Origin: an uncultured Clostridiaceae bacterium | GTDB lineage: Bacteria > Bacillota > Clostridia > TANB77 > CAG-508 | NCBI GenBank assembly: GCA_946998225.1 | Contig: CAMPYH010000002.1 | Location: 121,598-185,597 of the forward strand | Direction of reading: 5' to 3' | Length of the DNA stretch: 64,000 nucleotides | Shown: piece after piece, positions 6,640 through 46,275 of the stretch | How positions within the stretch are numbered: position 1 is the first letter of the stretch | How the letters are laid out: every line of letters starts with the position of its first letter | The notes under the pieces: generated by a model | What the model saw: only the letters and a program-made list of their open reading frames with translations | Told to the model about the DNA's origin: nothing | Database searches by the model: none | Position numbers and translations under genes: made by a program

Positions 6640-7986
6640 TTATTTAACTTTTACTTGTTTTACTAATGTATCAATAGCTTTTTTAATTTGTCCCGCTTTT
6701 TCCATATTTTCTTTTAGTTCTTTGTATTCTTTTCCTTTTATTTCTTTTTCAGTTACATTAGTTCCATACATTTTATTGTATTCATCTAAAGATTCTAGCA
6801 TCTCTTTTTCATCACATTTAATATCTTCCATTTTTATAATTGATTCAAGTACTATTTGTGTTTGAACTTCTTTTTTAATGTTTTCTTCAGATTCTTTTAA
6901 AACTTGTTTTAAATCTTCTGGAGACATTAATTGTGCTAAATCAAATCCTTGCATTTTATATTGTTCATTTGTTCTATCGAAATCAGATTTTGCTCTAAAT
7001 TCTACATATTTTTCTGAAACATTAATATTGTTTTCTTTTGCTAAAAATTCAACTGCTTTTTGAAGCATTATATTCTTTTTATTTTCTTCATTATGTTCAT
7101 TTAAATGTTCTTCTACATGTTTTTTGTATTCTTTTAAATTATCATAACCTAAATCTTTTGCAAACTCATCATCAAGTTCTGGTTTTTTAGTAATATATAT
7201 TTCAAATATTTCTACTTCGAATTTAGCCTTTTTACCTTGAAGACTCTTTTCAGCATATTCTTTTGGGAATGTAACTAAAACATCTTTTTTATCCCCCACT
7301 TTAAGACCAATTAATTGTTCTTCAAAATTATCTATAAATGAGTGTGATCCAATTACTAGATTAAATTTTTCGGCTGTTCCGCCTTCAAAATATTCATCTT
7401 CACCTTTATCATTTTTAATACTTCCTTTAAAAGATAAAACAACTTCATCTCCATCTTTAACTTTGTATTCTTTATCTTCAGAAAGTTCTTTACTTGAATT
7501 TTGTTCTAGATCTCTTTCAATTTGTTTTTTAGCTTCTTCTTTAACATCCATTAAATTATCTTTAATGTCTTTTTCTTTAACTTCAATTTTATCTAGTTTT
7601 TTAAGTTCTATAGTAGATGCAACTGCTACTTTAATTGTAACTTTAACATCTTTACCTTTTTCTAGATCTTTTTCGTCTATATCTACATTAATAATTCCAA
7701 GATTGTTTACATCTTTTTCTTTTTCTAATTTCTTTGTAATTTCTTCTGTACATTCTCCAAATGCTATAGCTTCAATTGCATCAGATAAAAATATATTTTC
7801 TCCATACATTTTTGTAACTATTTCATATGGTGCTTTACCTTTTCTAAATCCTGGTATATTAAAATAATTTTTGTTTTTCTTAAATTCATTTTTCATTTGT
7901 TCTTCTAGTTTCTCTCTTTTTACTACAAAAACAAATTCCATTTCTCCTTTGTCATGTCTATTATCTTTTAATTCTTTTATATCCAT
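6640..7986 (-). CDS. tig: Trigger factor
   Basis: 448 aa with the GFRKGKAP ribosome-binding signature. Fits tig-clpP-clpX synteny. Confidence 0.9.
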
Positions 7987-8063
7987 TTTTTCTTCCTTTC
8001 AAAATCTTTTGCATATCTAGTATATATAATTTAAGCATAAAAAGCAAATGAAGTAGTCGACTG

Positions 8064-20166: not shown

Positions 20167-23103
20167 TTACATAGATCCTTTTTTAATTACATCTATTATA
20201 TTCATATCATCTATTTTAGATCTTGCATACCTCATTGTTGTAAATATTATAATCATTACTCCGAATACAGCTATTAATATACTTTTCACGCTTAAATTAA
20301 CTTGTAATGATACATCTTTTTTAATTAGCAGTTCTAATATCTTCATTAATCCAAATGATGTTATTACTCCGTAGATTATTACTTTAGTTCCATAAAGTAC
20401 TGATTCATAATCTAACATTTTTCTCATTTGCTTTTTAGTCATACCCATTGATTTTAAATTTGCAAATTCTCTTTGTCTTAAAATTATATTTGTAGATATT
20501 GTATTAAATACATTAGATACAGATATTAATACTATAAGTACTATGAATCCATATACTAATATTTTAATAATTGTATTGACCGCTCTTATGCTTGCAAATA
20601 TTTTTCCTACATCTTCAAAATATTCTTGAATCACTATATCTGCTTCCGGATCGTTTTTCTTTTTATGGTCTCTCATATAGTCTTCAAATTTTTCTATATC
20701 TTCTTTATTTACACCTTTTGTATTATATAATTTTAAGTAATTTACTGATGGCATATAATATATTACCATATTATCTTTTAGATCCTCTAAAGCTTCTTTG
20801 TTATTTTTTTCTTCATCTGACATATTTTCTAGTGCTAATTTATATCTATATTCATTAATCTTTTTACCATATATTTTAGTTAGTTCTTCTTCTTTAGATA
20901 CATGGTCTTTATATATTTTCATGAATGTTTTTTTATTTACAATTATTCCACCGATATCTTCTTGATAAGAATCATTTCTTAATGTAGGGAAGTCTTCATC
21001 ATATATTACCTTATTAATTTTTAAATCTGTAAATTTAACATATTCTTTTTTTATTTTTTTATTTTCTTCATCATATATATCTTCTTTTATGTATATATTT
21101 GCATTATTTTTAGCACCTTTAATTGGTTTTATATTATAGTATTTATCTTTTGTATTTTTTACAAAATTACCTACTAGTATACCTTCACCATCTTTAAGTT
21201 CTACATTGTTCTTTTTTAAATACTTTTCTAATATTTCACCTTCTGCCGCTATTAATTTTGTACTAAACTTTTTATCTATATTTTCGTTTTCGAATTTTTC
21301 TCTTTCTTCTCTTTCTTTTCTAATATATTCCTCTTCCTTAGAAGCTTTATTTTTGTTTGTAAGTCCTCTTTTATCTTTTATATATTTAAGATATTCATTT
21401 TTTTCTTTTTCATTTATATCAAAATCATCGTAAGATAGTGCAAAATTGTTATTGATTTTAATTATATTTGCATTGTTTAATTTTTTATACTCTTTATCTT
21501 CTAATACATAATCTAAAGTCTTATTTAATTCTTCTATATATTTTTTACTATCTCTATTTTTAATATTTAATTTTCCATCAGATACTTTATGTGCTTCACT
21601 CACAAATCCTGATACAACATAATCTGCTACATTAAGTACATCTGGAGATATATTTGCCATTTCAGCAGTTCCAACTGAAAGAGTATTTTGTACTATTAAA
21701 AATATTACTACAGATACTGTAAGAGATAATATAGTTATTCTATATTTACCCTTACTTCTTTTTAAAGATTTGTTTGCAAGATCTCCTTCAACACCTAAAA
21801 GTTTTTTAGATATAAAACTTGTTCTAAGTTTTCTAGGTTTTATTACTATCTCATCAATACCTTTTATAGATTCTATTGGAGATGTTTTAGAAGCTTTTCT
21901 TGCTGGTCTTAAAATTCCAAAATATGTAACTATATATGTAACTATAGTTGTAGTTAAAATAACTGGCCAGTTAAATACCATTTTTAGTTTTAAGTCAGAC
22001 ATATATTCTGCTTCTGTTCCCATATTTATTAAACCAATCATTAGTTTATTAAGCATTATATAAAGTATTTTAATTCCAACAAGTCCAACTAAAAATCCGA
22101 ATAATAGTCCAAATGTTGCCATTATAAATGCTTCAAATGTTACAAGTTTCCTTATTTGTTTTTTGCTTGCACCTACTGATATAAGCATACCATAATCTTT
22201 TCTTCTCTCTGCTATAGATATTGTAAAGCTATTATATATTACAAGTATTGTAGCAGCACCTATTACAACGAATAAAAATATTTGTACTATCCAAAGTACT
22301 TTATTTATTTTATCATCACTTGTTTTATCATATGGTAAAAGTGCATAAGTATTGTAATCTACATTTTCTGCATTTCCTATTTGTTCATTTTCTTTTAATA
22401 AATTATTTGCTTTTAATATTTTTGTAAGATCTTGTAAAGCTGTTGATTTATTTTTAAATACTAAAGATATTCCAATATTTTTTTCATTATTTAAAATATT
22501 TTCTTTTTCAAAATCTTTTACTATAAATATTGCTGAATAATTTATCCTATTTCCAGATGTTATATAATCTACCTTGATTTTATCTATATCTGCTTTTATA
22601 CTTGCATCACCATCAAGTTTAGTTGCAGTTAATATACTGCTTTCTAATTCTTTAGTTTGTAAAGATGTTTTAATATTTTCTGTTACAATTACAGTTCCTT
22701 CTTTAAGTTTTACATCTTTGTCTTTTATTTTTCCAAAATATATATTTGGATCTTTTTCTAATTCTTTTTTATCTATATAGTATAGTCTCGCTTCTGCTAC
22801 ATATTTCTTGCTATTTTTTTCATCTTTTAATTTATATAGATTTTTTTCTACATATGGTGCAGCTGTTTCAAATTTAAGATTTTTCTTAAAATCTAATACA
22901 TTTTGTTTATTTATATATTTAACTATTGCTTCACTATTACCATCTAATATTTTTTGTGTATCTGATACAATTCTTTTACTTGATTCTGAAAGCATAGATA
23001 CAGTCATTATCATTGCTACAGCTATCATAAGTCCTATTATAGTTGCAATAGTTCTTTCTTTATTTGTTTTTAAGTATTTTATTGTAAGATTTCTAAAAAA
23101 CAT
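20167..23103 (-). CDS. ABC transporter permease with tandem FtsX/MacB-type domains (8 TM, two large extracytoplasmic domains)
   Basis: 978 aa containing two copies of the pattern TM, large loop, then 3 TM. FtsX-like segments are present (ERRKDYGMLISVGASKKQI and RQREFANLKSMGMTKKQM). Confidence 0.85.
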   Translation of the reverse strand: MFFRNLTIKYLKTNKERTIATIIGLMIAVAMIMTVSMLSESSKRIVSDTQKILDGNSEAIVKYINKQNVLDFKKNLKFETAAPYVEKNLYKLKDEKNSKKYVAEARLYYIDKKELEKDPNIYFGKIKDKDVKLKEGTVIVTENIKTSLQTKELESSILTATKLDGDASIKADIDKIKVDYITSGNRINYSAIFIVKDFEKENILNNEKNIGISLVFKNKSTALQDLTKILKANNLLKENEQIGNAENVDYNTYALLPYDKTSDDKINKVLWIVQIFLFVVIGAATILVIYNSFTISIAERRKDYGMLISVGASKKQIRKLVTFEAFIMATFGLLFGFLVGLVGIKILYIMLNKLMIGLINMGTEAEYMSDLKLKMVFNWPVILTTTIVTYIVTYFGILRPARKASKTSPIESIKGIDEIVIKPRKLRTSFISKKLLGVEGDLANKSLKRSKGKYRITILSLTVSVVIFLIVQNTLSVGTAEMANISPDVLNVADYVVSGFVSEAHKVSDGKLNIKNRDSKKYIEELNKTLDYVLEDKEYKKLNNANIIKINNNFALSYDDFDINEKEKNEYLKYIKDKRGLTNKNKASKEEEYIRKEREEREKFENENIDKKFSTKLIAAEGEILEKYLKKNNVELKDGEGILVGNFVKNTKDKYYNIKPIKGAKNNANIYIKEDIYDEENKKIKKEYVKFTDLKINKVIYDEDFPTLRNDSYQEDIGGIIVNKKTFMKIYKDHVSKEEELTKIYGKKINEYRYKLALENMSDEEKNNKEALEDLKDNMVIYYMPSVNYLKLYNTKGVNKEDIEKFEDYMRDHKKKNDPEADIVIQEYFEDVGKIFASIRAVNTIIKILVYGFIVLIVLISVSNVFNTISTNIILRQREFANLKSMGMTKKQMRKMLDYESVLYGTKVIIYGVITSFGLMKILELLIKKDVSLQVNLSVKSILIAVFGVMIIIFTTMRYARSKIDDMNIIDVIKKGSM

Positions 23104-23122
23104 AATTTCTCCTTTCTAATTA

Positions 23123-23809
23123 TTATACTAATTTTCTATCTTCAATTATTTTTCCATCTTCTATTGTTATCATTCTATCAGCCATAACAGCTAAATCTTC
23201 ATCATGTGTTATCATAAGTATGGTTTGTCCTAAAGATTTATTAGTATATTTTAAAAGTTCCATTATTTCTCTTGCGTTTTTTGTATCTAGATTTCCTGTT
23301 GGCTCGTCTGCAAGTATTATTGCTGGTTCATTTGAAAGTGCTCTTGCTATAGATACTCTTTGTTCTTGACCTCCAGATAATTCATTAGGAAGATTTTTTA
23401 ATTTTGTTTCAAGTCCTAATTTTTCTACCATTTCATTAAATTTTTTCTTATCTACTTTTTTTCCATCAAGTAATATAGGAAGATTTATATTTTCTTCTAC
23501 ATTAAGTATTGGAAGTAAATTAAAGAATTGGTAAATAAGTCCTACTTCACGTCTTCTAAAAATGGCAAGTTTTTCCTCTTTTAATGAATATATATCTACT
23601 CCATCAATATATATCTTTCCGCTTGTTGGTTTATCTACACCACCCATCATATGTAAAAGTGTAGATTTTCCAGAACCTGATTTACCAACAATTGATACAA
23701 ATTCACCTTTATCTACTTTAAATGAAACATTGTCCACTGCTTTTACAAAATTGCTTTTTCCTTCTTTTCCGTAATATTTACATAAATTTTCTACTTTTAA
23801 TATTTCCAT
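23123..23809 (-). CDS. ABC transporter ATP-binding protein (MacB/LolD-like)
   Basis: GKSGSGKST, LSGGQEQRV, ILADEPTGNLD and ITHD motifs. I set the start at M8 (ATG 23809), which has an AAAGGTG SD; the track's M1 has none. Confidence 0.9.
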   Translation of the reverse strand: MEILKVENLCKYYGKEGKSNFVKAVDNVSFKVDKGEFVSIVGKSGSGKSTLLHMMGGVDKPTSGKIYIDGVDIYSLKEEKLAIFRRREVGLIYQFFNLLPILNVEENINLPILLDGKKVDKKKFNEMVEKLGLETKLKNLPNELSGGQEQRVSIARALSNEPAIILADEPTGNLDTKNAREIMELLKYTNKSLGQTILMITHDEDLAVMADRMITIEDGKIIEDRKLV

Positions 23810-23828
23810 ATTACACCTTTTTCCTTTC

Positions 23829-23866
23829 ATTATAACTATATATATTAATTGTGACTATAAAGTGAC
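23829..23866 (-). promoter_or_regulatory. Candidate response-regulator-dependent promoter of the ABC genes
   Basis: Minus strand has TATAAT (23834-23829) and, 17 nt upstream, a weak -35 (TAGTCA). The direct repeat GTCAC...GTCAC has starts 11 bp apart (forward GTGAC at 23851 and 23862) and overlaps the -35. Confidence 0.4.
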
Positions 23867-23876
23867 AATAAAAAAA

Positions 23877-23892
23877 TAGAGCTAATGCTCTA
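23877..23892 (-). terminator. Short hairpin terminator between the DUF898-like gene and the ABC genes
   Basis: TAGAGC / GCTCTA stem with loop TAAT, followed by a T-run on the minus strand. Confidence 0.5.
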
Positions 23893-23896
23893 CTTT

Positions 23897-24247
23897 TTAT
23901 TCAAAATGTGTATGTTTTACCACCCATTTTTTCATAGCTATTTTTACCCATAGTCCATATATTCCAATTGTTATTATAGTAAGAAGAAACCACTTAATCC
24001 ATTGTCCAAAAAGTCCTACTGCTGTTCCATCAAATGTAAGTCTTCTTCCATTTATTACTGTATGTTTTGCTTTATATCTTTCCATTATTACTACAGACCA
24101 AGGAAGACATATTCCAAGAGTAAATGTACTAACCAATAATCCTAAAAGATATGTTAGGAAAAGTCCTGTTAATGTACCATCGAAATATGATGGTTCTTTA
24201 GCATCAACCACACTTACGTTTATGTTTACACTATTTTCATTATCCAT
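23897..24247 (-). CDS. Small membrane protein, DUF898 (YjgN)-like single repeat
   Basis: YFDG...FTLGICLPW...FDGT...ITIGIYGLW pattern, typical of DUF898 units. Confidence 0.5.
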   Translation of the reverse strand: MDNENSVNINVSVVDAKEPSYFDGTLTGLFLTYLLGLLVSTFTLGICLPWSVVIMERYKAKHTVINGRRLTFDGTAVGLFGQWIKWFLLTIITIGIYGLWVKIAMKKWVVKHTHFE

Positions 24248-24276
24248 AATTTTCTCCTTTTATTTATTTTTTATTT

Positions 24277-25746
24277 TTATTTATCTATTTTTTTAAACAA
24301 CACTTCGTTTATTTCATTTTTGGTTTTTTCTAAGCTGGCTTCATTTATTATTCCTATGTATAAATTTCTATTTGGCATAGAATATGTACGTCCATGGCTT
24401 CCTGTAACCTCTAGTGCATTTGAAGTAATTTTCCATTTTGGCATTTCATCTATTTGTTTTTTAGCATATTCTTTCATAAAGTCTACTGTTATATTTGTAT
24501 ATATTTCTTTTCCCATTGCCTCTATAATATTGTCTAGTCTTGCTAGTATACTAGGAGTTGTAGATATTTTTTGTATTGCAGCACTTATTATTTTTTGTTG
24601 GTTTTTACCTCTATCAAAGTCTCCATGTGCAAGTTGTTTTCTTTCTCTAGAGAATATTAATGCAGATTTACCATTTAAATGTATATTTCCATATTTAAAA
24701 TTTACTCCATCTCTATAGAAAGGTTTATCATTAAATACTGTAACTCCACCTATTAAATCTATAGCTTTAATAACTCCACTAAAGTTTATTCTAATAAAAT
24801 TATCTATTTCTATATCAAATAGATCTTCAATTGTTCCTACAGATTTATCTACTCCATATACTCCAGCATGTGTTAATTTATCTTTTAAACCTGTTGTACC
24901 TCTTAAATTAACATATGTATCTCTAGGTATATTTGTAAGAAGTATTTCATGTGTATTTGGATTTACTGTTGCTAAAATATTAACATCTGTTAATGAATTA
25001 ATATTAAGTCCAGATCTTGTATCTATTCCTGCAATATATACTATAAATGCTCCATTTTTATCTCGTTTATTTTCTTTTTGTTCTACTTTTTCTTCTAATG
25101 TAAATTCATAAATAAATCTCAATTTGTTTTTTAATATTGGGAATTGTTCAATAACAAAATCATATTCACCTTCACTTAGAAGAATTATATTAATTTTTCC
25201 TTCTATTAAATTATTTACAAGTTCGTTTATGTTATTAAAGTCTTTTCTATTATATTTTGTAGTTTCTTTAAGTTTATCAAACGCTTTATTAGCATTTTCA
25301 TTTATTTTAATTACACCTACTTCTTCAGTACTTTCAGTTGAAAATTTAATATCTTCTTTATTTGTAACAAGATAATATTTATTTGTTATTACTTTGCTAT
25401 TTTTTAAAGCATTAAACACTTTATTTGTACTATATATTCCTTTAAATCCTACTAGTGAAACTAAAATAGTTGGAACTAAAAGTATGTAGTAAAATATTTT
25501 AGATGCCTTTTTCTCTCTTTTAACATTTAATATTCCAAGTATAAGTGCTACTAAAGCAATTACTCCAAAGAATATTCCTAAATACTTATTAGGTAATATT
25601 TTTAAGTTATATACAAAGAAGCTTAATACTGCCAGCATTATTAATACTGTTAAATAACTTAGACTAAATATGTGTTTTCTTTTTTTACTTTTATCTTTTT
25701 TATCTTTTTTATCTTTTTTTTCTTCTTTTTTATCTCTTCTTCTCAT
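24277..25746 (-). CDS. LytR-CpsA-Psr (LCP) family glycopolymer ligase with 3 TM segments and a Lys-rich tail
   Basis: NIPRDTYV, KLTHAG and FSRERKQLAHGDFDRGKNQQK motifs. Confidence 0.85.
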   Translation of the reverse strand: MRRRDKKEEKKDKKDKKDKSKKRKHIFSLSYLTVLIMLAVLSFFVYNLKILPNKYLGIFFGVIALVALILGILNVKREKKASKIFYYILLVPTILVSLVGFKGIYSTNKVFNALKNSKVITNKYYLVTNKEDIKFSTESTEEVGVIKINENANKAFDKLKETTKYNRKDFNNINELVNNLIEGKINIILLSEGEYDFVIEQFPILKNKLRFIYEFTLEEKVEQKENKRDKNGAFIVYIAGIDTRSGLNINSLTDVNILATVNPNTHEILLTNIPRDTYVNLRGTTGLKDKLTHAGVYGVDKSVGTIEDLFDIEIDNFIRINFSGVIKAIDLIGGVTVFNDKPFYRDGVNFKYGNIHLNGKSALIFSRERKQLAHGDFDRGKNQQKIISAAIQKISTTPSILARLDNIIEAMGKEIYTNITVDFMKEYAKKQIDEMPKWKITSNALEVTGSHGRTYSMPNRNLYIGIINEASLEKTKNEINEVLFKKIDK

Positions 25747-25775
25747 ATTTATCCTTTCGCTTAAGAATTTTAAAC

Positions 25776-27077
25776 TTATTTTAAAAATCCTAATATAAAT
25801 TCTGAACCAAGTCCTTTTTTAGATTTTATATTAATATATCCATCTTGTGCTTCCATTATTTTTTTACTTATATTAAGTCCTATTCCAATACTTGTTTCTT
25901 TAGAATTTTTTCCTTTATAGAATCTTTTAAATATATTTTTAATTTCTTCTTTTGTAAGGCCTTCTCCTTCATCTTTTATATATATTCTAGAGTATAATCC
26001 TAAATCCTTAAAAAATATATATATTTTTTTATTTTCTTTAGATATTTCAATTGCATTTTTTAAAATATTTGATACAGCCTCCATACACCAGTTATAGTCT
26101 CCCATAAAATATGCATCTTCATTTTCTTCTAAAACTACTTCTATATTTCCAAGCTCTAAAGTATATCTAAATTTTTCTATTATCTTTTTAATAAAATCAT
26201 TAAAATATATTTTTTCCTTTTTAAACTGTATAGATTTTGCATCAAGTCTTGCCATCTTTAAAAGTTCTTCTATTAAAAATGAAATCTTCTTTATATCTTC
26301 TTCAATGCTTTTAGTCTTTTTAATATATGAGTTTATTAGTTTTATATTATTATCATTTTGATCTTCTTTGCTTTTATTTAATTCTATTTCTAAGTTTTTG
26401 TTTAATTCATTTTTAATACTATATATTTGAACACTTATATTGGATATTGGTATTCTTATTTGATGTGAAATATCTGAAATAAAGTCTTCTATACTTATTC
26501 TACTGCTTTCTTCTTCACTTAGTGTTTTAACATATTTTTGCACTAGTTTATTTATATCTGATTTACCTTTATATATCTCACCTTCACTATATTGAATTAT
26601 GTTTTCTAGTTTTGTTTTATCTGGATATGCTTCTAATATTTCAGAGATATCTGCTAAATGTTTTAAAATCTTTTTGTTTTCAATATAAAAATATATTATA
26701 CATATTGTATATATTAAAAATATTAAAGAGCTTAAAACTATAAAACTTTTTATATATTCACTATAATATATATCGTCTTTATTAAAATCTGTTTTTTCTA
26801 TTCCTTTATTAATATATACTTTTTCTTTAGAATCTAAATACTTTTTATATTCATTTTCATTTCTAATTTCTTTATCATATATTGCTAATATATTTGAATC
26901 TAAATTTTTATCTTTTTCTATATATTTAATAATACCTATTTCAACATTTTCTCTTAGATGTATATATCTTGCTTTAATTACAAAGTTTAATGCTATTAAG
27001 ATTAAAATTGGAATATATATGTATCTAAAATATATTTTAATAAATTTAAAAACTTTTTTACTATTATCTTTATTCAC
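25776..27077 (-). CDS. Sensor histidine kinase
   Basis: Two TM segments flank a roughly 70-aa loop. H-box is FISDISHQIRIPIS. The HATPase domain has IKDEGEGL and GIGLNISK. Confidence 0.85.
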   Translation of the reverse strand: MNKDNSKKVFKFIKIYFRYIYIPILILIALNFVIKARYIHLRENVEIGIIKYIEKDKNLDSNILAIYDKEIRNENEYKKYLDSKEKVYINKGIEKTDFNKDDIYYSEYIKSFIVLSSLIFLIYTICIIYFYIENKKILKHLADISEILEAYPDKTKLENIIQYSEGEIYKGKSDINKLVQKYVKTLSEEESSRISIEDFISDISHQIRIPISNISVQIYSIKNELNKNLEIELNKSKEDQNDNNIKLINSYIKKTKSIEEDIKKISFLIEELLKMARLDAKSIQFKKEKIYFNDFIKKIIEKFRYTLELGNIEVVLEENEDAYFMGDYNWCMEAVSNILKNAIEISKENKKIYIFFKDLGLYSRIYIKDEGEGLTKEEIKNIFKRFYKGKNSKETSIGIGLNISKKIMEAQDGYINIKSKKGLGSEFILGFLK

Positions 27078-27741
27078 TTAATTTATATCCCATTCCTCTC
27101 ACAGATTCCACAATATATTTTCCATCATTAAGTCCAACTTTTTCTCTTATTCTTTTAATATATACTGAAACTGTATTATCATTAACATAATTATCTGTTT
27201 TATTATATATAATATCTTTAATTTGTTCTCTAGATATTATCCATCCACTTTTTTCAAAAAAGTTTTCCATTATTTCATATTCAATATATGTAAGTGAAAT
27301 TTCTTTTTCACCTATATATATTTTTTTCCTAGCTGTATCTAGTACATATATTCCTCTTGTTATTTTTACATCTTTACTTTTCTTTCTTACTAGATTCCTA
27401 ATTTTAGATATTAATATTTCGGTATTAAATGGTTTTGTTATGTAATCATCTGCTCCAAGATCAAGTCCCATTACATTATCTTTTATTTCATCTCTTGCTG
27501 TTAAAAATATTGTTATAACTTCTTCTAAATTAACTTTGTTTTTTAGCTTCTTAAAAAGTTCAAAACCAGATTTATATCCTAAATTAATATCTATTAAATA
27601 TATATTATATGTATTTTTAAACTCATCTTCTGCTTCTTCAAATGTATATACACTTTTAACAATATATCCTTCTTTTTCAAGGATTTCTCTTAATGTATTA
27701 TTTAATGTTTTTTCATCTTCAATAATTAATATTTTATTCAT
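27070..27741 (-). CDS. OmpR-family response regulator
   Basis: Receiver domain (ILIIEDE, IDINLG) plus a winged-helix C-terminus (VRGMGYKL). Overlaps the kinase gene start by 8 nt. Confidence 0.9.
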   Translation of the reverse strand: MNKILIIEDEKTLNNTLREILEKEGYIVKSVYTFEEAEDEFKNTYNIYLIDINLGYKSGFELFKKLKNKVNLEEVITIFLTARDEIKDNVMGLDLGADDYITKPFNTEILISKIRNLVRKKSKDVKITRGIYVLDTARKKIYIGEKEISLTYIEYEIMENFFEKSGWIISREQIKDIIYNKTDNYVNDNTVSVYIKRIREKVGLNDGKYIVESVRGMGYKLSE

Positions 27742-33987: not shown

Positions 33988-35592
33988 TTATTTGCTCATT
34001 CCTTTAGATAAAAATACATCTTTTTGTTTGTGTTTTACAACTTCATATATTTTTTCTCTTCCAAGTTTTCCATAATCTCTTGGAGTAAAATTACTTTTGT
34101 TTTCAGCTAAGAATTTTCTAACCTCAGATGTCATTGCAAGTCTTAAATCTGTATCTACATTTATTTTAGATACTCCCTTTATTGCTGCTTCTTTTAGCAT
34201 CTCATCTGGCATTCCTTTTGCATCTGGAAGTTCTCCACCATATTTATTAATTGTTTGAACTAATTCTTGTATTACAGAACTTGCTCCGTGAAGTACTATT
34301 GGAGTATCTGGTAAAAGTTTTCTAACTTCTTTTAATATATCCATTCTTAATTTTGCTTCACCTTTAAATTTATATGCTCCATGACTTGTTCCGATTGCAA
34401 TTGCTAAACTATCTACTCCAGTAAGTTCTACAAATCTTTTTGCATCTTCTGGATGTGTATATATAGCATCATCTGAAGATACATTAACTTCATCTTCTAC
34501 TCCTGCAAGTGTTCCAAGTTCAGCCTCTACTGTAACACCTCTTGGATGTGCATATTCTACAACTTGTTTTGTAAGTTTTACATTTTCATCAAATGGGAGA
34601 CTTGATGCATCTATCATTACAGAAGTCCATCCATTATCTATTGCTTTTTTACAAATTTCAAAATTTGCACCATGGTCTAAATGTAGTGCAATTTCTATAT
34701 CTGAATTTTTAACAGCAGCCTCTACCATTTTATATATATAATCTATTCCCATATATTCAATTGCTGACTTAGATGTTTGAAGTATTACAGGACTTTTAAG
34801 TTCATTACTTGCTTTAATTATTCCTTGAAGGCTTTCCATATCTGATATATTAAAAGCACCTACTGCATATCCTTCTTTATGTGCTTTTTGAAGCATTTCT
34901 TTTGTATTAACTAACATATTTGTTTCTCCTTTTAAAATCTTTATTTTTTCTTTTGTTGCATAATTTTTATCTACTGAATTTGTTAAATACGTTCCAGAAA
35001 CTAAAATATCTGCATTATTTAGCAATCTTCTTGTGATATTATTTACGCTTCCATCTATTTCTATTTTTGTATCTAATTTATTTGATTCTATATATTTTTT
35101 TATATTTTCTATTTTTTTAATTACATCATACTCAAAAGGTCTTCCTCCTTCTCCAGGATGTACCGTCATTACTAAAACTCTATTTACGTATTTTAAATAT
35201 TTAAAAATTTCATCTTCTTTCGTTTCAGGATTAATTACAATACAAGGATTTTTTCCTAAATATTTAATATATTCAATAAACTTAATGATCTCTATTTCAT
35301 TTTTATCTTTAAATTCTTCAATATGTATTCCAATTGTATTTACATTATATCTTGAAAAAAGATTTATATTGTTTTTCAAATTAAAATACTTACACATTAA
35401 ATGTACATCTATATCTAGTCCTAGATCATTTACTGCCTCTATCTTTTCAATCATTTCATTTACTGTGTTTCTTTTAACAAATTCTCCATCCATAATATCA
35501 ATATGGAAAGAGTCTACACCAGCACTTTTTAGTGCCTGTGTAGCCTCTTTTATATTTTTATTAATTCCTAATAATGATACTGATACTTTCAC
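33988..35592 (-). CDS. fba: Fusion ORF: ribulose-phosphate 3-epimerase-like domain (aa 1-225) plus class II fructose-1,6-bisphosphate aldolase (aa 226-534)
   Basis: The Rpe part has FHIDIMDG, DVHLM, MTVHPGEGG and IEIDGS motifs. The Fba part has GYAVGAFN, LHLDHG, VEAELG and GTSHGAYK motifs. The GTG start directly abuts the prkC stop. Confidence 0.85.
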   Translation of the reverse strand: MKVSVSLLGINKNIKEATQALKSAGVDSFHIDIMDGEFVKRNTVNEMIEKIEAVNDLGLDIDVHLMCKYFNLKNNINLFSRYNVNTIGIHIEEFKDKNEIEIIKFIEYIKYLGKNPCIVINPETKEDEIFKYLKYVNRVLVMTVHPGEGGRPFEYDVIKKIENIKKYIESNKLDTKIEIDGSVNNITRRLLNNADILVSGTYLTNSVDKNYATKEKIKILKGETNMLVNTKEMLQKAHKEGYAVGAFNISDMESLQGIIKASNELKSPVILQTSKSAIEYMGIDYIYKMVEAAVKNSDIEIALHLDHGANFEICKKAIDNGWTSVMIDASSLPFDENVKLTKQVVEYAHPRGVTVEAELGTLAGVEDEVNVSSDDAIYTHPEDAKRFVELTGVDSLAIAIGTSHGAYKFKGEAKLRMDILKEVRKLLPDTPIVLHGASSVIQELVQTINKYGGELPDAKGMPDEMLKEAAIKGVSKINVDTDLRLAMTSEVRKFLAENKSNFTPRDYGKLGREKIYEVVKHKQKDVFLSKGMSK

Positions 35593-39419: not shown

Positions 39420-39485
39420 AATTATACTTTATATAATTTTAAAACTTTTTTCAATATTAAAAGAAAAAAAGCAGATATATCTGCT

Positions 39486-40523
39486 TTATAAATTACATTC
39501 ACCTATTGCATCTTTTACAGCTTTAACTGAAAGATCCATTTGTTTTTTCTCTATACTATTAAGATCTATCTCTATAACTTTCCTTACTCCGCTTCCATCA
39601 ATAATTGCTGGTGATCCTATAAAAAGATCACTATGACCATAATGTCCGTCTAAATAGCAAGATATTGGAAGTATGCTTCCTTGATCATTAAGTATTGTTT
39701 TACATATCTTAGTCATACTCATAGCAATTCCATAATATGTTGCACCTTTTTTATTTATAATCTCATATGCTGCATTTTTAACATTATGGAATATTTGATC
39801 AAGTTCTTTCATTGTACTTTCTTTTTCATTTTCTTCAAGCCATTTTGTAAGCGGAACACCTGCAATATTTGTTTGTGACCAACAAGGAAATTCTGTATCT
39901 CCATGTTCCCCTAATATATATCCATGAATATTTCTTGTATCTATATTTAACTTTTCTGCAATTTCTCTTCTTAATCTTGCTGTATCTAGTGTAGTTCCTG
40001 TACCAATAACTTTTTCTTTAGGAAATCCACTAATTTTCCAAGTAGCATATGTTAAAACATCTACTGGATTTGTAGCTATTAAAAATATTCCTTTAAATCC
40101 TGATTCAACTATTTTAGTAATTATATCTTTAAATACAATAATATTATTATTCAAAAGATCCATTCTTGTTTCACCAGGTTTTTGTGGAACTCCTGCTGCT
40201 ATTGCTACAATTTCTGCATCTTCACAATCTTTAAATTCAGCTCTATATATTTTCTTAGGTCTTGTATATGCAACAGCATTAGAAAGATCCATTGCATCAC
40301 CTTCAGCTCTTTCTTCATTTATGTCTATTATACCTATTTCTCTTGCTGCATCTTGTGCAACCAAAGTATAAGCAAAAGATGAGCCTACCGCTCCATCTCC
40401 TACTATTATTATTTTGCCTCTTTTTTTTCTTCTATCTTTTTTAATCTCTTCTGTTATTTCTTTTTTTATTTCGTCTTTAATTTCTTGTTTTTTATTTTCT
40501 AATTTTTCTAATAAATTTTCCAT
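39486..40523 (-). CDS. ldh: L-lactate dehydrogenase with a roughly 35-aa Lys/Glu-rich N-terminal extension
   Basis: IIIVGDGAVGSS Rossmann motif and GEHGDTE catalytic-loop region. Confidence 0.9.
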   Translation of the reverse strand: MENLLEKLENKKQEIKDEIKKEITEEIKKDRRKKRGKIIIVGDGAVGSSFAYTLVAQDAAREIGIIDINEERAEGDAMDLSNAVAYTRPKKIYRAEFKDCEDAEIVAIAAGVPQKPGETRMDLLNNNIIVFKDIITKIVESGFKGIFLIATNPVDVLTYATWKISGFPKEKVIGTGTTLDTARLRREIAEKLNIDTRNIHGYILGEHGDTEFPCWSQTNIAGVPLTKWLEENEKESTMKELDQIFHNVKNAAYEIINKKGATYYGIAMSMTKICKTILNDQGSILPISCYLDGHYGHSDLFIGSPAIIDGSGVRKVIEIDLNSIEKKQMDLSVKAVKDAIGECNL

Positions 40524-40566: not shown

Positions 40567-41697
40567 TTATTGCCATAGATTTTCATTTTTTAATTTTTGT
40601 ATGATTTGTTTATGTTCTTCTAAAGTGTTTGTAAAATATATTTTACCGTTTTTATCTGAAACAAAAAACAATGCTGAATTTTGTTTATAATTTAATACTC
40701 CGCTTATTGCTTTTTCAGATGGTGATGCAATAGGACCTACCGGAAGTTTTCCTTCCATATTTGGACCTCTTGTATTAAATTTACCAGGTGTTTGAAGTTG
40801 TGATAATGTAAGTGGCACATTAAGTGGTGTATTTACCTCATAATGTGTTGTAGGATCACTTCCAAGAGACATGTTTTTATTTAATCTATTTATAAATAGT
40901 CCTGCAACAAGTGGTGCATCTTCTAGATGTCTTGCTTCTTTTTCAACAATTGATGCAAGTGTTAAAACTTCATGTGTATTAAATGAAATTTCTTTTAATC
41001 TTTTCTCATGTTTTTTAAGTATTCTACCCATTTCATCTAATGAAAGTTCTATTATTTGTTTTGGTGTTATTAATTCTTTATCAAAGATATATGTATTAGG
41101 TGCTATATATCCTTCTAAAGGATATTTTAAATCTTCATTTAAAATTTCTTTTTCATCTAAAAATGTATATTTTTTACAAAGTTCTTTCATATATTCTTTA
41201 TCTAAAAAAGTCTTTTTCATTTCTTCTTTAGTTATTTTAGTATTTTTTGCAACTGTATCTATAATTTGATCTATTTTATATCCTTCAATTATTGTAAGTT
41301 TTATATCATTTTTAAAAACTTCACCTTTTTTAATCATATCTAAAATCTTTTCAAGACTCATGTCTTTATTTACTTTATATTTTCCTTTGTTAATTAAATT
41401 AACTTTATGTCTTTTTACATATATTTTGTATGCATTTTCATCTTTAATAAGACCATTTTCTTTTAAAATTGTCCCTAACTCTCTTACAGTTGTATTTTCT
41501 TTTATATTAAAGATAACTTCTTTATCTTTATCTTTATTAGTTGGTGTTATTCCGTTTTTATACCAGCCATATGCTCCCAAAACTATTAAAGCTAAAATTA
41601 AAACAATCCCTATAATTATTTTAAAAAACATACCACCTTTTTTTACATCTCTTTTTATTGATTTGAATTCACCATTTTCTACATTAAAATCTTCCAT
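40567..41697 (-). CDS. mltG: Endolytic murein transglycosylase MltG (YceG family)
   Basis: N-terminal TM segment, then SLGSDPTTHY and LPVGPIASPS motifs. The ATG overlaps the upstream stop (TAATG). Confidence 0.85.
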   Translation of the reverse strand: MEDFNVENGEFKSIKRDVKKGGMFFKIIIGIVLILALIVLGAYGWYKNGITPTNKDKDKEVIFNIKENTTVRELGTILKENGLIKDENAYKIYVKRHKVNLINKGKYKVNKDMSLEKILDMIKKGEVFKNDIKLTIIEGYKIDQIIDTVAKNTKITKEEMKKTFLDKEYMKELCKKYTFLDEKEILNEDLKYPLEGYIAPNTYIFDKELITPKQIIELSLDEMGRILKKHEKRLKEISFNTHEVLTLASIVEKEARHLEDAPLVAGLFINRLNKNMSLGSDPTTHYEVNTPLNVPLTLSQLQTPGKFNTRGPNMEGKLPVGPIASPSEKAISGVLNYKQNSALFFVSDKNGKIYFTNTLEEHKQIIQKLKNENLWQ

Positions 41698-42677
41698 TAT
41701 TTATTTTCTTTCTTTATTTTATTTTTATCTTTTTTTATCTTCTTTGCTTTTTTAGTCTTTGTATTATGTGCTAAATATGTAAGAAGATATGTAACTATAG
41801 ATATTACATAATATATACCAAGTACAACAAGCATCGAAGTTGCTTTTAGTCCATTTATATTTACAAGCCATACTATCATTACAATAAATATAGTATATAT
41901 ATTCATTAATAATATATCTATAGGTAAAATATTTCTTAATAATTTCTTTTCATTTTTTTCATCATATAGTCCAAGTGATTTTCGGTAGTTTACTCCATTT
42001 TTATTAAATAATTTTATTCTTGCTTGTGATGAAATTATTATAACAATTATTAGCATTATGCTATTTATTAAAATATTGTCTACATTTTCTTTGAAAAGAA
42101 TTTTATTATTTTTAAAATCTATAAATTCTAATTTTAAATTTTCTGGAGTTTTACTTATTTTATCTATTCTGTTTTCTAAATCATCTAAATATTTATTTTG
42201 TCCTTTTTCGCCTTTTTCATATTTTTTAGAATAGTCTCCTAAATGAAGATTTTCATATCCAAAACCTTCAAAAATTGCTCCCACTGAAACACCAGACATT
42301 TTTTCACGAGATATTCCATAATGTTCAACTATTTTAGGCATAGATTTTAAATTGCTTTCTGCTGTATGAAAGAATTCTTTTTCTAAACCTTCCTGAATAA
42401 TATATACAGCTTGCACTCTACCTCTGTTTAGATTAACATAGCTATCTGCTTCATTTGAATATTCTAAAACATTAGCTTTTTTACCAAGTGCTTTTTTAAC
42501 TATTTTAGACAGTCTTGAATTGTCTTTATCTATAACAATTATATCTGTTTTATATTTATTAAAATTCTCATTATATATTTTCTTTCTTACACACATTCCC
42601 ATTATCATTGTAAATATTAAAAGGATTAATATATATGGAGTATATTTTTTATATAAATTTAAATATGTTTTTCTCAT
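41697..42677 (-). CDS. ABC-2-like membrane protein (N-terminal TM, extracytoplasmic domain, 3 C-terminal TM)
   Basis: 326 aa with a DIIVIDKDNS...NLNRGRVQAVYIIQEGLEKEF region, typical of ABC-2 permease ectodomains. RBS GGAGGAG, and a TAATG overlap with the upstream gene. Confidence 0.5.
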   Translation of the reverse strand: MRKTYLNLYKKYTPYILILLIFTMIMGMCVRKKIYNENFNKYKTDIIVIDKDNSRLSKIVKKALGKKANVLEYSNEADSYVNLNRGRVQAVYIIQEGLEKEFFHTAESNLKSMPKIVEHYGISREKMSGVSVGAIFEGFGYENLHLGDYSKKYEKGEKGQNKYLDDLENRIDKISKTPENLKLEFIDFKNNKILFKENVDNILINSIMLIIVIIISSQARIKLFNKNGVNYRKSLGLYDEKNEKKLLRNILPIDILLMNIYTIFIVMIVWLVNINGLKATSMLVVLGIYYVISIVTYLLTYLAHNTKTKKAKKIKKDKNKIKKENK

Positions 42678-44440
42678 TATTTCTCCTCCATCTTAATCTT
42701 TTTTATTTTTATATTAAATGCAATTATCCAAATAATACTTAAAACTACACCATATGCAAAAATTGCTAAAATATTACTAAATCCTACTCCTGTATTTCCC
42801 ATTAGTCTAAATAAATACATTCCATTTATATATAAATACATTGGATTAAGTCTTGCTATATATATAGTAAGCACATTTGTATATATTGAAGCAAAAGATA
42901 ATACTAAAAATAATACTGCAATTAATGTGTATACTATATTTTTAGTTTTAACATTTTTCTTATACATAATATTATTAAATACAAATGCAAATTTTGTAGT
43001 AAATAGTGTATATACTAGTATCATTAGCATTACTGTATATTTTGTATATTTTTCAAAATATCTATATATATCTGTTTTTAAATATTCCACTAACTTATTA
43101 ATCTCAAATCTATGATTTTCTGAAACCATTATTCCTAAAGATATTTTTAAAACAGATTCTAGTATGAAATAAAATACTATAGCAAATACTAGATTCATTA
43201 AAAATGCAAATAAAAAGCTTTTATATTCTCTTTTAAATAATTTTACCTTTTTAACATTTCTTAATACATTATTTTTTGTGCTTTGAATTTGTTCTTTTTG
43301 ATCTAAATATTTTATATTTAATATTCCTTGCATAAATATCATAAATGCTAAAAGAGATACAAATATATATATTCTATTTCCATTGTTTATTTTATAAAAT
43401 AATTCTTTATATTTCTTTTCTTGTTCTTGTTTTTGCTCTTGTTTAATTTTGTCTTCTATTGCTTTTTGCTTTTTATATTTTTCATATTTTTCTTTTTCTT
43501 CTTTAGAAAGTTTTGATTCATCTATTTCTGTTTCTTTTTGTTTTATTTTACTTAAATCTAAAGGTTCATTAGCATTTACAAATTTCATACTATGATGATC
43601 ATTATGTTTTGCTTGAATTTCCATTTGATTTATTTGTTCTTCTGTTGGTATATTTTGTTTTAAAGTTTCTTTTTTATTTTTATATTGAAGTCTTTGATAT
43701 TCTTGCATAATATCTTTTACTTTATATGGATCTTTTCCATTTTCTTTAACTTCATCATTTATGTATTTTACATACTTTTCTTCTAATTTATTTCCAAGCA
43801 TCATAAATGGTGTCTCATAACTTACATCTGCTAAATAATTTATTGGCATACCAGGAATCATGAATCTTTTAAACTTGTTTTTCTCAAATTCATCCATTAC
43901 TTCTTTTTGTGGTTTAGTAGTTAAAAGTTCTCTTTTAAAATCTGCATCTTTAATTAATGACTCTATATAATCTTTAAAAAGAAAAGTGTTTTCACTAACT
44001 CTACTACTTACAAGTTTAATACTCATTTTTTCACCAAGTTCTTCCTCTGTAAGTACTTTTTTATCTCCTGTTGTATATGCTTCTATATTCTTATTTATGT
44101 TTTTTAAATCTCTTTCTTTAACATAAAGGTACATATCTATATTACCTTTACCTAAATCATCTTTAGCTTCTTCTTCAGCATCATATCTAATATAATAGAT
44201 AAATGGCATTTCTAGATAGCTTGCATTTTTTGAAATGGAAACTAATGCCTCTACCATATTATCATCTTTTTGTATTGCTTCATTAAATACAATACCAATT
44301 TTTGCTATATCCATTTTTTTGCCAAATACATTATTAGAATAAATATTTGCAAGTATAACTAATAATATTGGTATAAAAAGAAAATATGTCCAAATTTTCT
44401 TATCTTTAAAATATATTTTTAATTCTTTCACATCAACCAC
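42677..44440 (-). CDS. ABC-2-like membrane protein (N-terminal TM, large ectodomain, about 6 C-terminal TM)
   Basis: 587 aa. The likely true start is the second GTG at 44431, 5 nt after an AAGGTGG SD. Confidence 0.5.
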   Translation of the reverse strand: MVDVKELKIYFKDKKIWTYFLFIPILLVILANIYSNNVFGKKMDIAKIGIVFNEAIQKDDNMVEALVSISKNASYLEMPFIYYIRYDAEEEAKDDLGKGNIDMYLYVKERDLKNINKNIEAYTTGDKKVLTEEELGEKMSIKLVSSRVSENTFLFKDYIESLIKDADFKRELLTTKPQKEVMDEFEKNKFKRFMIPGMPINYLADVSYETPFMMLGNKLEEKYVKYINDEVKENGKDPYKVKDIMQEYQRLQYKNKKETLKQNIPTEEQINQMEIQAKHNDHHSMKFVNANEPLDLSKIKQKETEIDESKLSKEEKEKYEKYKKQKAIEDKIKQEQKQEQEKKYKELFYKINNGNRIYIFVSLLAFMIFMQGILNIKYLDQKEQIQSTKNNVLRNVKKVKLFKREYKSFLFAFLMNLVFAIVFYFILESVLKISLGIMVSENHRFEINKLVEYLKTDIYRYFEKYTKYTVMLMILVYTLFTTKFAFVFNNIMYKKNVKTKNIVYTLIAVLFLVLSFASIYTNVLTIYIARLNPMYLYINGMYLFRLMGNTGVGFSNILAIFAYGVVLSIIWIIAFNIKIKKIKMEEK

Positions 44441-44441
44441 C

Positions 44442-45170
44442 TTATTTTACTTCTACTATTTTTTCACTATCTAATATTTCATCTTTATTTGTTGTTAAAT
44501 ATATTAATTTGAATTCTAATTCTTTTGAAAGTTTTCTTAAAAGAGCTAGCTCTAATTTTCTTTCTTCATTAGTTAAATTTAAATCATTATATACAAATAG
44601 ATAATCCGGATTTAAAGTTAAAGCATTTGCGATATTAACTTTTCTAAGTGTAAAATCACTTAAGCTTTTCATTTTCATTTTTCTTAAATCTTCAATTTCC
44701 ATTTTAGATATAATTGAATCTACATTTTCTACAACATCACCATAATTCATTGAAAGTAGTTCTAGTGTATAATCTAAAGTTTCTTCTACAGTAAAGTTTT
44801 TAATATAATTAAATTTTGATTCAACTATATTAAATCTCTCACATTTATTATCCTCATTTTTCTTGAAATTAATTATCGCTTTTTCAAAGAAATAATTATT
44901 ATCTTTCATATTAGGTCCATAAACCGCTATATTTTTATTTCCTTCTCCAAAGATATTTTCATTATTTTCTTCTACATTTTTAACTTCTGCTTTTTTAATT
45001 TCTACTTTATTTTCTTTTTTTGTATCTTTTTCTTTTATATCGTTTTTTAAATCTTTTTCTATATTTTTATTTTCTTTATTTACTTTATTTTTTTCTTTTG
45101 TATTTTGTTTTTTATTCTCTTTTTTAACGTCTTTTTTAACTTCTTTTTTAGTTTCTTTTTTGTTTTTCAC
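44442..45170 (-). CDS. Degenerate (predicted catalytically dead) ABC nucleotide-binding-domain protein with a Lys-rich N-terminal tail
   Basis: GTG start with a GGAGAG SD. NBD-like order of motifs, but all are mutated: GPNMKDNN (Walker A), LSDFT (signature), LFVYND (Walker B) and TTN (H-loop). Confidence 0.6.
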   Translation of the reverse strand: MKNKKETKKEVKKDVKKENKKQNTKEKNKVNKENKNIEKDLKNDIKEKDTKKENKVEIKKAEVKNVEENNENIFGEGNKNIAVYGPNMKDNNYFFEKAIINFKKNEDNKCERFNIVESKFNYIKNFTVEETLDYTLELLSMNYGDVVENVDSIISKMEIEDLRKMKMKSLSDFTLRKVNIANALTLNPDYLFVYNDLNLTNEERKLELALLRKLSKELEFKLIYLTTNKDEILDSEKIVEVK

Positions 45171-45241
45171 TTGGCTCTCCTTATATAAAATTTAATTATA
45201 ATATATCAAAAGCTTTAATCTAATTCAAATGGAAAATAAAA

Positions 45242-45267
45242 AAGTAAGGTTTATTAAAACCTTACTT
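45242..45267 (-). terminator. Intrinsic terminator overlapping the stop of the 156-aa gene
   Basis: 10-bp stem AAGTAAGGTT / AACCTTACTT followed by a TTTTATTTTCC tail on the minus strand. Confidence 0.7.
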
Positions 45268-45732
45268 AATTAAGATAGAAATTAAATATATCGCTGTTAT
45301 AATAAACAGTCCTGTAAGTTCAATAGACGTTAATATTAGCTCAATATTTAATACTAAAAAATAATTTTTTTCTGCCTCTAGTGTTTCTTTAGAATAAAAT
45401 AATGCATCTTCCTCTATTAGATTTCTTAGTACCACATCCATGTGTCTTACGTGTAAATCTAAACAAGAAATAAAGGATATATATAATAGATATTCAACTA
45501 TTAAAACAACTCTATCCATATAATGTGTATAAAGCAAAAAAGCTATAATAAACAACATTGTATATAAAACAAAGTTTACTAAAATAATTCCTTTAATAAG
45601 TTTATACCTATTTACATCCACACTATAATGCTTTGAGTCAGCAAACATTTTTTTAATATAAATCCTATTTGCTACATCCAAAAATCCTACTGCAAGCAGA
45701 AAAACAAACATTGCAAAATTCAAACAAATCAC
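45262..45732 (-). CDS. Hypothetical small polytopic membrane protein (about 4 TM)
   Basis: 156 aa with hydrophobic segments at both ends. No family recognised. Confidence 0.5.
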   Translation of the reverse strand: MICLNFAMFVFLLAVGFLDVANRIYIKKMFADSKHYSVDVNRYKLIKGIILVNFVLYTMLFIIAFLLYTHYMDRVVLIVEYLLYISFISCLDLHVRHMDVVLRNLIEEDALFYSKETLEAEKNYFLVLNIELILTSIELTGLFIITAIYLISILIK

Positions 45733-45819: not shown

Positions 45820-45839
45820 AAAGCACCTACCGGTGCTTT
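45820..45839 (-). terminator. Intrinsic terminator overlapping the stop of the 145-aa gene
   Basis: AAAGCACC / GGTGCTTT stem with loop TACC and a TTTTATTTTC tail. Confidence 0.7.
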
Positions 45840-46275
45840 AAAAACCTTCAAAAAGCTTTTCGATTGTTAAAGATACTATAAAGAAATATCCAATTAAAAG
45901 AAGAGCTATTGTAGCTATTTGTATAACAATTGTTAGCATTTTTATTTCATCTTTAAATGGTTTTATTCGTCTTTTCCTACTATAATTCATTACACTTTCT
46001 TCAGATAGATCAAATAGCTTAAGAAGAGCTATAAACACAATTAATTGCAAGATTACAAAAACTGTAAGCTCCACCTTTCGTTCCATAAGTATTGTTAAAA
46101 CTGCCATTACAAAAATCATTATATTCAATATATCTTGTGTCATCGAAATATTTACTTTTGTTTCTGATCTGTTTTTATCTGAGATTAAACTGTTTAAATA
46201 CCTAAATCCTATTCTAAGTATTATTATAAGCACACCATAAATTATGGTATAAAAATTGCTAAGCTTTTGAAACAT
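45838..46275 (-). CDS. Hypothetical small polytopic membrane protein (about 4 TM)
   Basis: 145 aa with RBS GGGGTGATAATATG. No family recognised. Confidence 0.5.
   Translation of the reverse strand: MFQKLSNFYTIIYGVLIIILRIGFRYLNSLISDKNRSETKVNISMTQDILNIMIFVMAVLTILMERKVELTVFVILQLIVFIALLKLFDLSEESVMNYSRKRRIKPFKDEIKMLTIVIQIATIALLLIGYFFIVSLTIEKLFEGF

Follow-up and report, generated by a model that had tools for sequence, protein, structure and literature searches.

What is left for the nucleotide-binding domain (NBD) of an ATP-binding cassette (ABC) protein to do when every motif with which it would handle ATP is gone? The question is raised by a locus in the window analysed here, a 64-kb stretch of contig CAMPYH010000002.1 from an uncultured Clostridiaceae bacterium, where the gene of a protein of 242 amino acids (aa) with an NBD-like domain precedes the genes of two membrane proteins apparently of ABC-2 type (587 and 326 aa) and mltG, the gene of the glycan-strand terminase. 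ABC systems are defined by their ATPase, and in the degenerate cases known so far at least one site works or nucleotide is still bound. The answer that we propose, and that we hold to be probable, is that the first three genes, in the order NBD, permease, permease, are a lineage-specific remnant of an ABC-2 exporter, kept as an ATP-independent membrane complex. The argument turns on the following open reading frames (ORFs) and their parts.

45170 to 44442, minus strand: ORF of the 242-aa protein, read from the sequence
44946 to 45170, minus strand: codons 1 to 75 of this ORF, a disordered Lys/Asn/Glu-rich tail with 26 Lys and a net charge of +9
44442 to 44945, minus strand: predicted pseudo-NBD domain, residues 76 to 242 and the stop codon, from NCBIfam, a PDB profile, AF2, Foldseek and a motif table
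44440 to 42677, minus strand: ORF of the 587-aa protein, which has 584 aa when read from the likely GTG start at 44431 (42677 to 44431)
42677 to 41697, minus strand: ORF of the 326-aa protein, read from the sequence
41697 to 40567, minus strand: ORF of MltG, 376 aa, read from the sequence
39486 to 40523, minus strand: L-lactate dehydrogenase gene (ldh), 345 aa, with Ldh_1_N and Ldh_1_C matches, probably the fifth gene of the unit

Is the 242-aa protein an NBD at all? A first-pass annotation of the locus had suggested that its motifs be confirmed by alignment to PF00005 (ABC_tran). The Pfam scan gives no match to this family at E values up to 1; other profiles and structure point to the NBD fold. 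Thirty-eight ABC-ATPase models of NCBIfam match approximately residues 89-239 (E values 5e-9 to 1) with scores of 18-36 bits against cut-offs of 200-570, and a profile of six family members finds the NBDs of MalK, PotA, FtsE, EcfA and similar proteins in the PDB, aligning LSnfa with LSGGQ, lfvyNDl with lllDEPl and ylsTNkde with yvTHDqae. In the AlphaFold2 (AF2) model, built on an alignment of eight sequences, residues 1-69 are disordered, with a predicted local distance difference test score (pLDDT) below 50, and residues 70-242 reach pLDDT values of 80-94; when this model is compared with the PDB by Foldseek, the top 50 matches are all ABC NBDs (probability 1.0, E values from 5e-9). AF2, Foldseek, NCBIfam and the PDB profile thus agree with the earlier description of a Lys-rich tail of about 75 aa followed by an NBD-like domain, here about 165 aa long, and the modelled protein is an ABC NBD fold composed of a RecA-like core and a helical subdomain.

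The ATP site of this domain was followed in a motif table of six orthologues, one per sublineage. The GK[ST] of Walker A is absent throughout, the equivalent letters being GPNMKDNN, GKNKVDSE, GENYKENN and similar, and the Gln of the Q-loop is replaced by S, P, K, E or N. The signature reads LSDFT, LSNFA, LSNKS, LSNYT, LSPFT or LSEST, with Leu-Ser alone retained; Walker B reads ND, DD, LD or EN, and the His of the H-loop has become Asn or Asp. Since the catalytic positions vary between orthologues, they are free of the constraint expected of a catalytic site. The replacement of signature, Walker B and H-loop reported by the first-pass annotation is thereby confirmed, and the loss of the Q-loop Gln is added to it. 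Its identification of Walker A with G85-N92 holds for the missing Lys and is ambiguous for the exact register: the succession of strand, helix 88-104 and strand in the AF2 model fits that mapping, MAFFT and several alignments by hidden Markov models put G85-P86 after a deleted P-loop, and the P-loop Lys is missing under both registers. The domain is also shortened. Its ordered part starts at strand 81-84, right after the tail, with no N-terminal beta-subdomain (the beta1-beta2/A-loop segment), and 33 residues separate Walker A from the Q-loop where the intact NBD P0018 has 46, a difference of about 13. Judged by its sequence, the pseudo-NBD is unable to form an ATP site, all its ATP-handling motifs being gone.

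A metagenomic protein, P0016, which is among the ordinary NBDs nearest to the pseudo-NBD profile, carries the signature LSKGM and the H-loop TSQ with Walker A and Walker B intact. It may show NBD decay at an intermediate stage, in another low-GC organism.

Could so degenerate a protein be the functionless relic of a decaying gene, or could the NBD-like reading be spurious, an annotation artefact of AT-rich DNA? The window has a GC content of about 25% and carries nearly all its genes on the minus strand; the DNA of the module formed by the first three genes has 21-25% GC, a composition that yields Lys/Asn/Glu-rich low-complexity sequence. The failure of Pfam ABC_tran to match speaks for such an explanation, as does the tail, which evolves almost neutrally: when the window is compared with the orthologous locus L008, at about 77-83% protein identity, the ratio of nonsynonymous to synonymous substitution rates (dN/dS) is 0.80 for the tail. 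The same comparison gives 0.23 for the NBD-like domain, which is thus being maintained as a protein and not decaying, and 0.27 for the 587-aa protein, 0.18 for the 326-aa protein, 0.29 for MltG and 0.09 for Ldh. The ORFs of the module are unbroken in six sublineages at 48-99% identity, 84 columns are invariant among eight sequences of the 242-aa family, and 19 of the 47 positions of the helical subdomain are invariant. Together with the confident NBD fold and the strong ribosome-binding site at the GTG start, these observations largely refute the relic or artefact, which we consider highly improbable.

The tail might also have been produced by a mis-called start. This reading was rejected: the 242-aa gene has an AGGAG ribosome-binding site before its GTG, the N-terminus MKNKK is conserved, and in six sublineages the frame stays open through insertions and deletions with no internal start before the domain. 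Among orthologues the tail varies from about 50 to 140 aa, always in frame, its composition being kept and its sequence not. Readings of the module as phage genes or as a defence system were rejected as well, PADLOC returning nothing and PHROGs only a weak ABC-transporter match for the pseudo-NBD.

How widespread is the family? An exhaustive HMMER scan of 1.84 billion representative proteins retrieved it as two 50%-identity clusters only, the next matches being ordinary ABC ATPases at E values of 3.7e-9 or worse, and a word-index search found eight 90%-identity clusters of the 242-aa protein, all metagenomic. A profile scan of genome contigs with the pseudo-NBD alignment recovered no relative; the corresponding scan with MltG recovered a single contig of a metagenome-assembled genome, L007 ('uncultured Eubacteriales bacterium'), which starts at mltG and is the only GTDB representative obtained. 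As far as these searches of sequence collections reach, the family does not extend beyond a single narrow lineage, which is uncultured.

The permease architecture that had been attributed to both membrane proteins, with an N-terminal transmembrane (TM) helix, an extracytoplasmic domain and a C-terminal TM bundle, holds well for the 587-aa protein and in part for the 326-aa protein. The former passes PF12698 (ABC2_membrane_3) in Pfam with an E value of 6.6e-10 and 39.0 bits against a threshold of 31.6, over positions 1-346 of the 347 of the profile, and the L009 orthologue reaches 81.8 bits. Hydropathy peaks at 16-34, 357-375, 409-427, 470-488, 497-515 and 557-575 give 1+5 TM helices. The extracytoplasmic domain that they enclose, about 320 aa long, closes with a K/E-rich helix whose length varies; the TM2-TM3 loop contains an invariant N395-V396-K397. 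PF12698 overlaps coiled-coil families (PMC3695513), and a coiled-coil artefact was considered and rejected: an N-terminal fragment (TM1 and the extracytoplasmic domain to residue 290) still scores 28 bits over residues 14-165, outside the K/E-rich stretch at about 290-350, and the score in L009 is high. The C-terminal TM bundle alone gave no PF12698 match when the fragment was rescanned. No NCBIfam family matches the 587-aa protein, Pfam gives PF12698 alone with no match to YhgE/Pip, and a word-index search yielded 5 matches, swamped by low-complexity candidates. By its profile match the 587-aa protein is classed as an ABC2_membrane_3 permease.

In the 326-aa protein the hydrophobic segments (12-30, 199-217, 253-271 and 282-300) amount to 1+3 TM helices, short of the six-TM topology, with an extracytoplasmic domain of about 170 aa between TM1 and the other three. 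All five orthologues tried have PF12698 as their best-matching family, always below threshold (best E value 5e-6), and we read the protein as a divergent, C-terminally shortened ABC-2-like membrane protein. Pfam finds no FtsX domain (PF02687) in either membrane protein, and PDB profile searches with the two families gave no meaningful match.

The complex that these three proteins would form can be pictured as follows. The pseudo-NBD would dock on the cytoplasmic loops of a 587/326 heterodimer, which it would stabilise; in real NBDs it is the helical subdomain that forms the groove for the coupling helices. The resulting assembly would be static and ATP-independent, and its working parts would be the two extracytoplasmic domains, both large, on the outer side of the membrane, perhaps together with the polycationic cytoplasmic tail. 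If the business end consists of the extracytoplasmic domains, the role would be a structural or regulatory one in the envelope, and action on or with MltG would be one candidate among such roles.

Several points weigh against this reading. Non-canonical nucleotide binding by the pseudo-NBD may be compatible with its sequence, and the docking on the membrane proteins is drawn from the neighbourhood of the genes and from the precedent of the family. For the 587-aa protein AF2 gave a poor model (mean pLDDT 48); it was not used, nor was the Foldseek search made with it, which gave nothing below an E value of 0.27 and had an insect ABCH transporter as its non-significant top match. The 326-aa protein scores 18.5 bits with PF12698 where 31.6 are required, over positions 9-255 of the 347, and hhalign relates its family to that of the 587-aa protein with a probability of only 25%, over one TM pair, so that their paralogy is not demonstrated. 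The coverage of the genome is the 64 kb of the window, and an orphan NBD could be encoded elsewhere. Finally, "a structural or regulatory envelope role" is vague as to the actual activity.

The coverage of the genome bears directly on another explanation, in which the locus encodes a working transporter: either an intact NBD encoded elsewhere would drive the 587- and 326-aa proteins, to which the 242-aa protein would be accessory, or the permeases would serve as a channel or flippase that is passive or coupled to ions. Lipids, polymers or drugs are what ABC-2 permeases normally export, and both membrane proteins are under purifying selection, as a transporter would have it. The window was searched for an NBD that could play this part. 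None that is intact lies in the operon, in agreement with the first-pass annotation, and the sole transporter NBD of the window (23123-23830, ABC_tran E value 1e-35) adjoins an FtsX-family permease in a Bce-like module on the same strand:

20167 to 27741, minus strand: Bce-like module as a whole
27070 to 27741, minus strand: its response regulator
25776 to 27077, minus strand: its histidine kinase
24277 to 25746, minus strand: LytR-CpsA-Psr protein
23123 to 23830, minus strand: NBD
20167 to 23103, minus strand: 978-aa FtsX-family permease

The other protein of the window with both Walker A and signature is encoded by an ORF of the size of UvrA (13723-16596), and the NBD near the L001 locus has an FtsX permease as its partner too; the intact NBDs at hand thus belong to FtsX-type systems. 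ABC-2 NBD genes nearly always adjoin their permeases, and here that slot is held by the pseudo-NBD in every orthologous locus. The ATP sites of an ABC dimer are composite, each combining the Walker A of one NBD with the signature of the other, and an intact NBD borrowed from elsewhere would therefore still face the dead signature LSDFT across its own P-loop. The fold, moreover, has six helices, of which the 326-aa protein lacks two. We regard a working transporter as very unlikely.

Comparison with known systems shows what the module shares with them and where it departs from them. ABC-2 exporters with one NBD and two ABC2_membrane_3 permease genes include LnrLMN/YfiLMN of B. subtilis and YbhFSR of E. 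coli. The module shares with them the order NBD-permease-permease, the core fold of the NBD and a PF12698 permease with N-terminal TM helix, extracytoplasmic domain and C-terminal bundle. It differs from them in an NBD that has neither catalytic motifs nor beta-subdomain and bears a disordered Lys-rich tail of 75 aa, in a second permease of 4 TM helices, in the size of the extracytoplasmic domain of the first permease (about 320 aa), and in its position, which is not a resistance locus but a housekeeping unit shared with mltG and ldh. Membrane proteins of the YhgE/Pip/EsaA type, ABC-2-like themselves, work without any NBD; they have a similar TM bundle, a large, partly helical extracellular domain and an ATP-independent surface function, but their loci contain no NBD-like protein, whereas two chains and a cytoplasmic pseudo-NBD are found here. 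In TM287/288, BmrCD, CFTR and Pdr5, too, NBD motifs are replaced while fold and complex are kept. In these exporters (PMC5626490, PMC8421411) only one ATP site is degenerate and the other has the consensus motifs; they bind ATP at the degenerate site and still hydrolyse ATP, whereas here the only NBD-like subunit is motifless.

The loose analogy with FtsEX drawn by the first-pass annotation fares less well. FtsEX, which acts on EnvC-amidases, PcsB and CwlO, resembles the module as an ABC-derived, non-transporting complex that could act on a wall-cleaving enzyme. FtsX, though, belongs to PF02687 and to type VII mechanotransmission and not to ABC-2, and its known partners activate amidases or are endopeptidases; MltG is not among them. 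According to PMC11627006, signalling by FtsEX needs the ATPase activity of FtsE; ATPase-driven signalling is ruled out here, all ATPase motifs being absent. The analogy fails on its defining features, there being neither an FtsX-family permease nor ATPase motifs.

What, then, of MltG? The fourth gene was identified correctly: its product, with an N-terminal TM anchor, matches PF02618 (YceG) with an E value of 2.7e-68 (230.9 bits) and TIGR00247 with 199.9 bits against a cut-off of 103.4, and it aligns with Lmo1499 of Listeria (4IIW) at an E value of 1.5e-43, SIVEKEA corresponding to SIIEKEA. We take the catalytic Glu to lie in the SIVEKEA segment, as assigned in the literature on MltG of E. coli. 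By these matches the protein is a bona fide MltG/YceG endolytic transglycosylase.

The order module-mltG-ldh is found in every relative whose context was fetched (L008, L001-L005, L006, L009 and L010), that is, in six sublineages, the upstream end being cut in L010 and the downstream end in L002 and L004. Conservation of the order beyond one strain, which had been in question, thus extends for module and mltG to all six sublineages recovered; ldh follows mltG in L001, L003, L005, L006, L008, L009 and L010. Upstream of the module stands polC wherever that side is visible, and downstream of ldh the content varies (rlmN-stp-prkC, TetR-MacB, a class A penicillin-binding protein, or capsule genes). 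MltG identity is 53-99% among the relatives that bear the module and falls from at least 53% within the lineage to at most 45% outside. In three outgroup loci (L011-L013) no ABC module precedes mltG, and the slot is occupied by a gene of about 400 aa with a TM anchor, Cu_amine_oxidN1 and a weak GH18-like C-terminal region; in L013, polC is found further upstream.

L011, 5801 to 6976: outgroup gene before mltG
L012, 5802 to 7004: outgroup gene before mltG, overlapping mltG by 4 nt
L013, 5969 to 6975: outgroup gene before mltG

As the slot holds another envelope-type gene in these outgroup loci, the module is an innovation of this lineage, and the outgroup gene may mark an uncharacterised, conserved partner slot before mltG.

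This arrangement invites a more specific explanation, in which the pseudo-ATPase ABC-2 complex is a dedicated partner of MltG that positions, scaffolds or gates the terminase through its extracytoplasmic domains without ATP. The module lies directly upstream of mltG on the same strand in the six sublineages while the genes past ldh vary, the two overlap in the window (TAATG) and in L001 (34 nt), and the presence of another envelope-type gene before mltG in the outgroups, overlapping the start of mltG in L012, suggests that this slot tends to harbour a partner related to the wall. Dead domains that regulate wall hydrolases also have a precedent in the dLytM factors (EnvC, NlpD, DipM), of which DipM regulates lytic transglycosylases among other enzymes (PMC10336132). 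The module would share with these factors the logic of a pseudoenzyme in cell-wall control, in an unrelated fold; they are periplasmic and touch the hydrolase directly, whereas the pseudo-NBD would be cytoplasmic and would act at most via its membrane subunits.

How strong is the physical linkage? The four ORFs lie where the first-pass annotation had drawn them, with the junction letters it described, and the close coupling that it saw at the first junction does not stand. After the TAA at 44444-44442 come two GTGs in frame, at 44440 and 44431, of which the second is the start in orthologues (584 aa in P0009, with N-termini MKELK/MKNLR); the first two genes are therefore separated by 10 nt, with GGTGG as ribosome-binding site, and do not overlap. 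TAATG overlaps are present at 42677, between the genes of the 587- and 326-aa proteins, and at 41697, between the latter and mltG. Junctions of at most 10 nt, however, make up 16 of the 50 same-strand junctions of the window, among them a TAATG between the unrelated frr and uppS, and prkC and an rpe-fba fusion meet with 0 nt between them. Tight junctions are genome compaction here and carry little functional weight. Across the six sublineages the spacing from the 326-aa gene to mltG is -1, +20, -34 (L001), +101 and +100 (L006/L009) and about +36 to +72 nt. Coupled translation with mltG is therefore no conserved trait, and what had been proposed as a feature of the unit turns out to be specific to the window genome.

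Nor does the unit stop at mltG. Consensus scans place boundaries on either side of five genes:

45242 to 45267, minus strand: terminator-like hairpin, an 11-bp stem then TTTTATTTTC, after the gene of a 156-aa membrane protein; 5' boundary of the unit
45200 to 45228, minus strand: promoter-like site, TTGAAT and TATATT spaced by 17 nt, the -10 preceded by TG, some 30 nt before the pseudo-NBD gene starts
39468 to 39487, minus strand: terminator-like hairpin and T-run, an 8-bp stem AAAGCAGATATATCTGCTTT then TTTTCTTTT; end of the five-gene unit

The promoter-like site (45228-45200) lies directly downstream of the terminator that closes the preceding 156-aa gene, and is a consensus match only, of a kind no commoner here than in shuffles of AT-rich DNA. 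The gap of 43 nt between mltG and ldh contains no terminator. From the sequence signals, a single transcription unit of five genes is predicted: those of the pseudo-NBD, the 587-aa protein, the 326-aa protein, MltG and Ldh.

These results count against a dedicated partnership with MltG. The overlap is not conserved, and the gaps of about 100 nt in L006 and L009 leave room for a separate promoter; tight junctions are a genome-wide habit; ldh is equally faithful to the block, and the predicted unit continues through it to the terminator at 39487-39468, yet no Ldh complex would be inferred; and in so narrow a clade, with only two 50%-identity clusters in the family, the conserved order may be inherited synteny, the support being gene order and not interaction. 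Scaffolding or regulation of MltG is thus a hypothesis that is not compelled, because coupling is unconserved, ldh is in the unit, tight junctions are common and the clade is narrow, and we consider the partnership unlikely. A particular form of it, an exapted scaffold that replaced an ancestral wall-type gene before mltG and positions or restrains the terminase, with the pseudo-NBD as cytoplasmic clamp and polycationic tether, seems to us decidedly unlikely.

Some further features of the region deserve description. The Ldh of the window begins with about 35 K/E-rich residues (MENLLEKLENKKQEIKDEIKKEITEEIKKDRRKKRGK), an N-terminal extension whose sequence, unlike that of the pseudo-NBD tail, is conserved in the L006 orthologue (7485-8528); the Ldh of L008 (5355-6443) has 362 aa and was aligned as well. 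Between polC and the module lie the genes of two small four-TM proteins of 156 aa (45262-45732, minus strand) and 145 aa (45838-46275, minus strand), each with its own terminator. A family search returned no match for either, and their mutual BLASTP E value of 1.8 reveals no detectable kinship; the 156-aa gene is kept at the same position in L001-L005. Further along the minus strand, a 534-aa ORF (33988-35592) fuses ribulose-phosphate 3-epimerase (residues 3-203, E value 8e-38) to class II fructose-bisphosphate aldolase (228-530, E value 1e-100). This rpe-fba fusion abuts prkC with a 0-nt gap, and rsgA, which usually stands between prkC and rpe in Firmicutes, is absent from that place.

In conclusion, the pseudo-NBD is real and unusual, and the MltG story is unproven, resting on synteny in a narrow clade. 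The statement that no unit of a pseudo-ATPase ABC-2 complex with MltG has been described agrees with our literature searches, which found none. The practical value of the finding is limited for now, the lineage being uncultured and narrow. Were the link with MltG true, it would add a new kind of regulator of glycan-strand termination, a process whose control in Gram-positive bacteria is poorly understood, and the scaffold reading would provide the first pseudo-ATPase ABC complex controlling peptidoglycan chain length. Does the ABC fold have work to do besides hydrolysis? A P-loop-less NBD fold maintained by selection with ABC-2 partners would demonstrate that an ABC-2 scaffold can be retained for a task that takes no energy, and the pseudo-NBD would be a natural minimal NBD with which the other roles of the fold could be probed.

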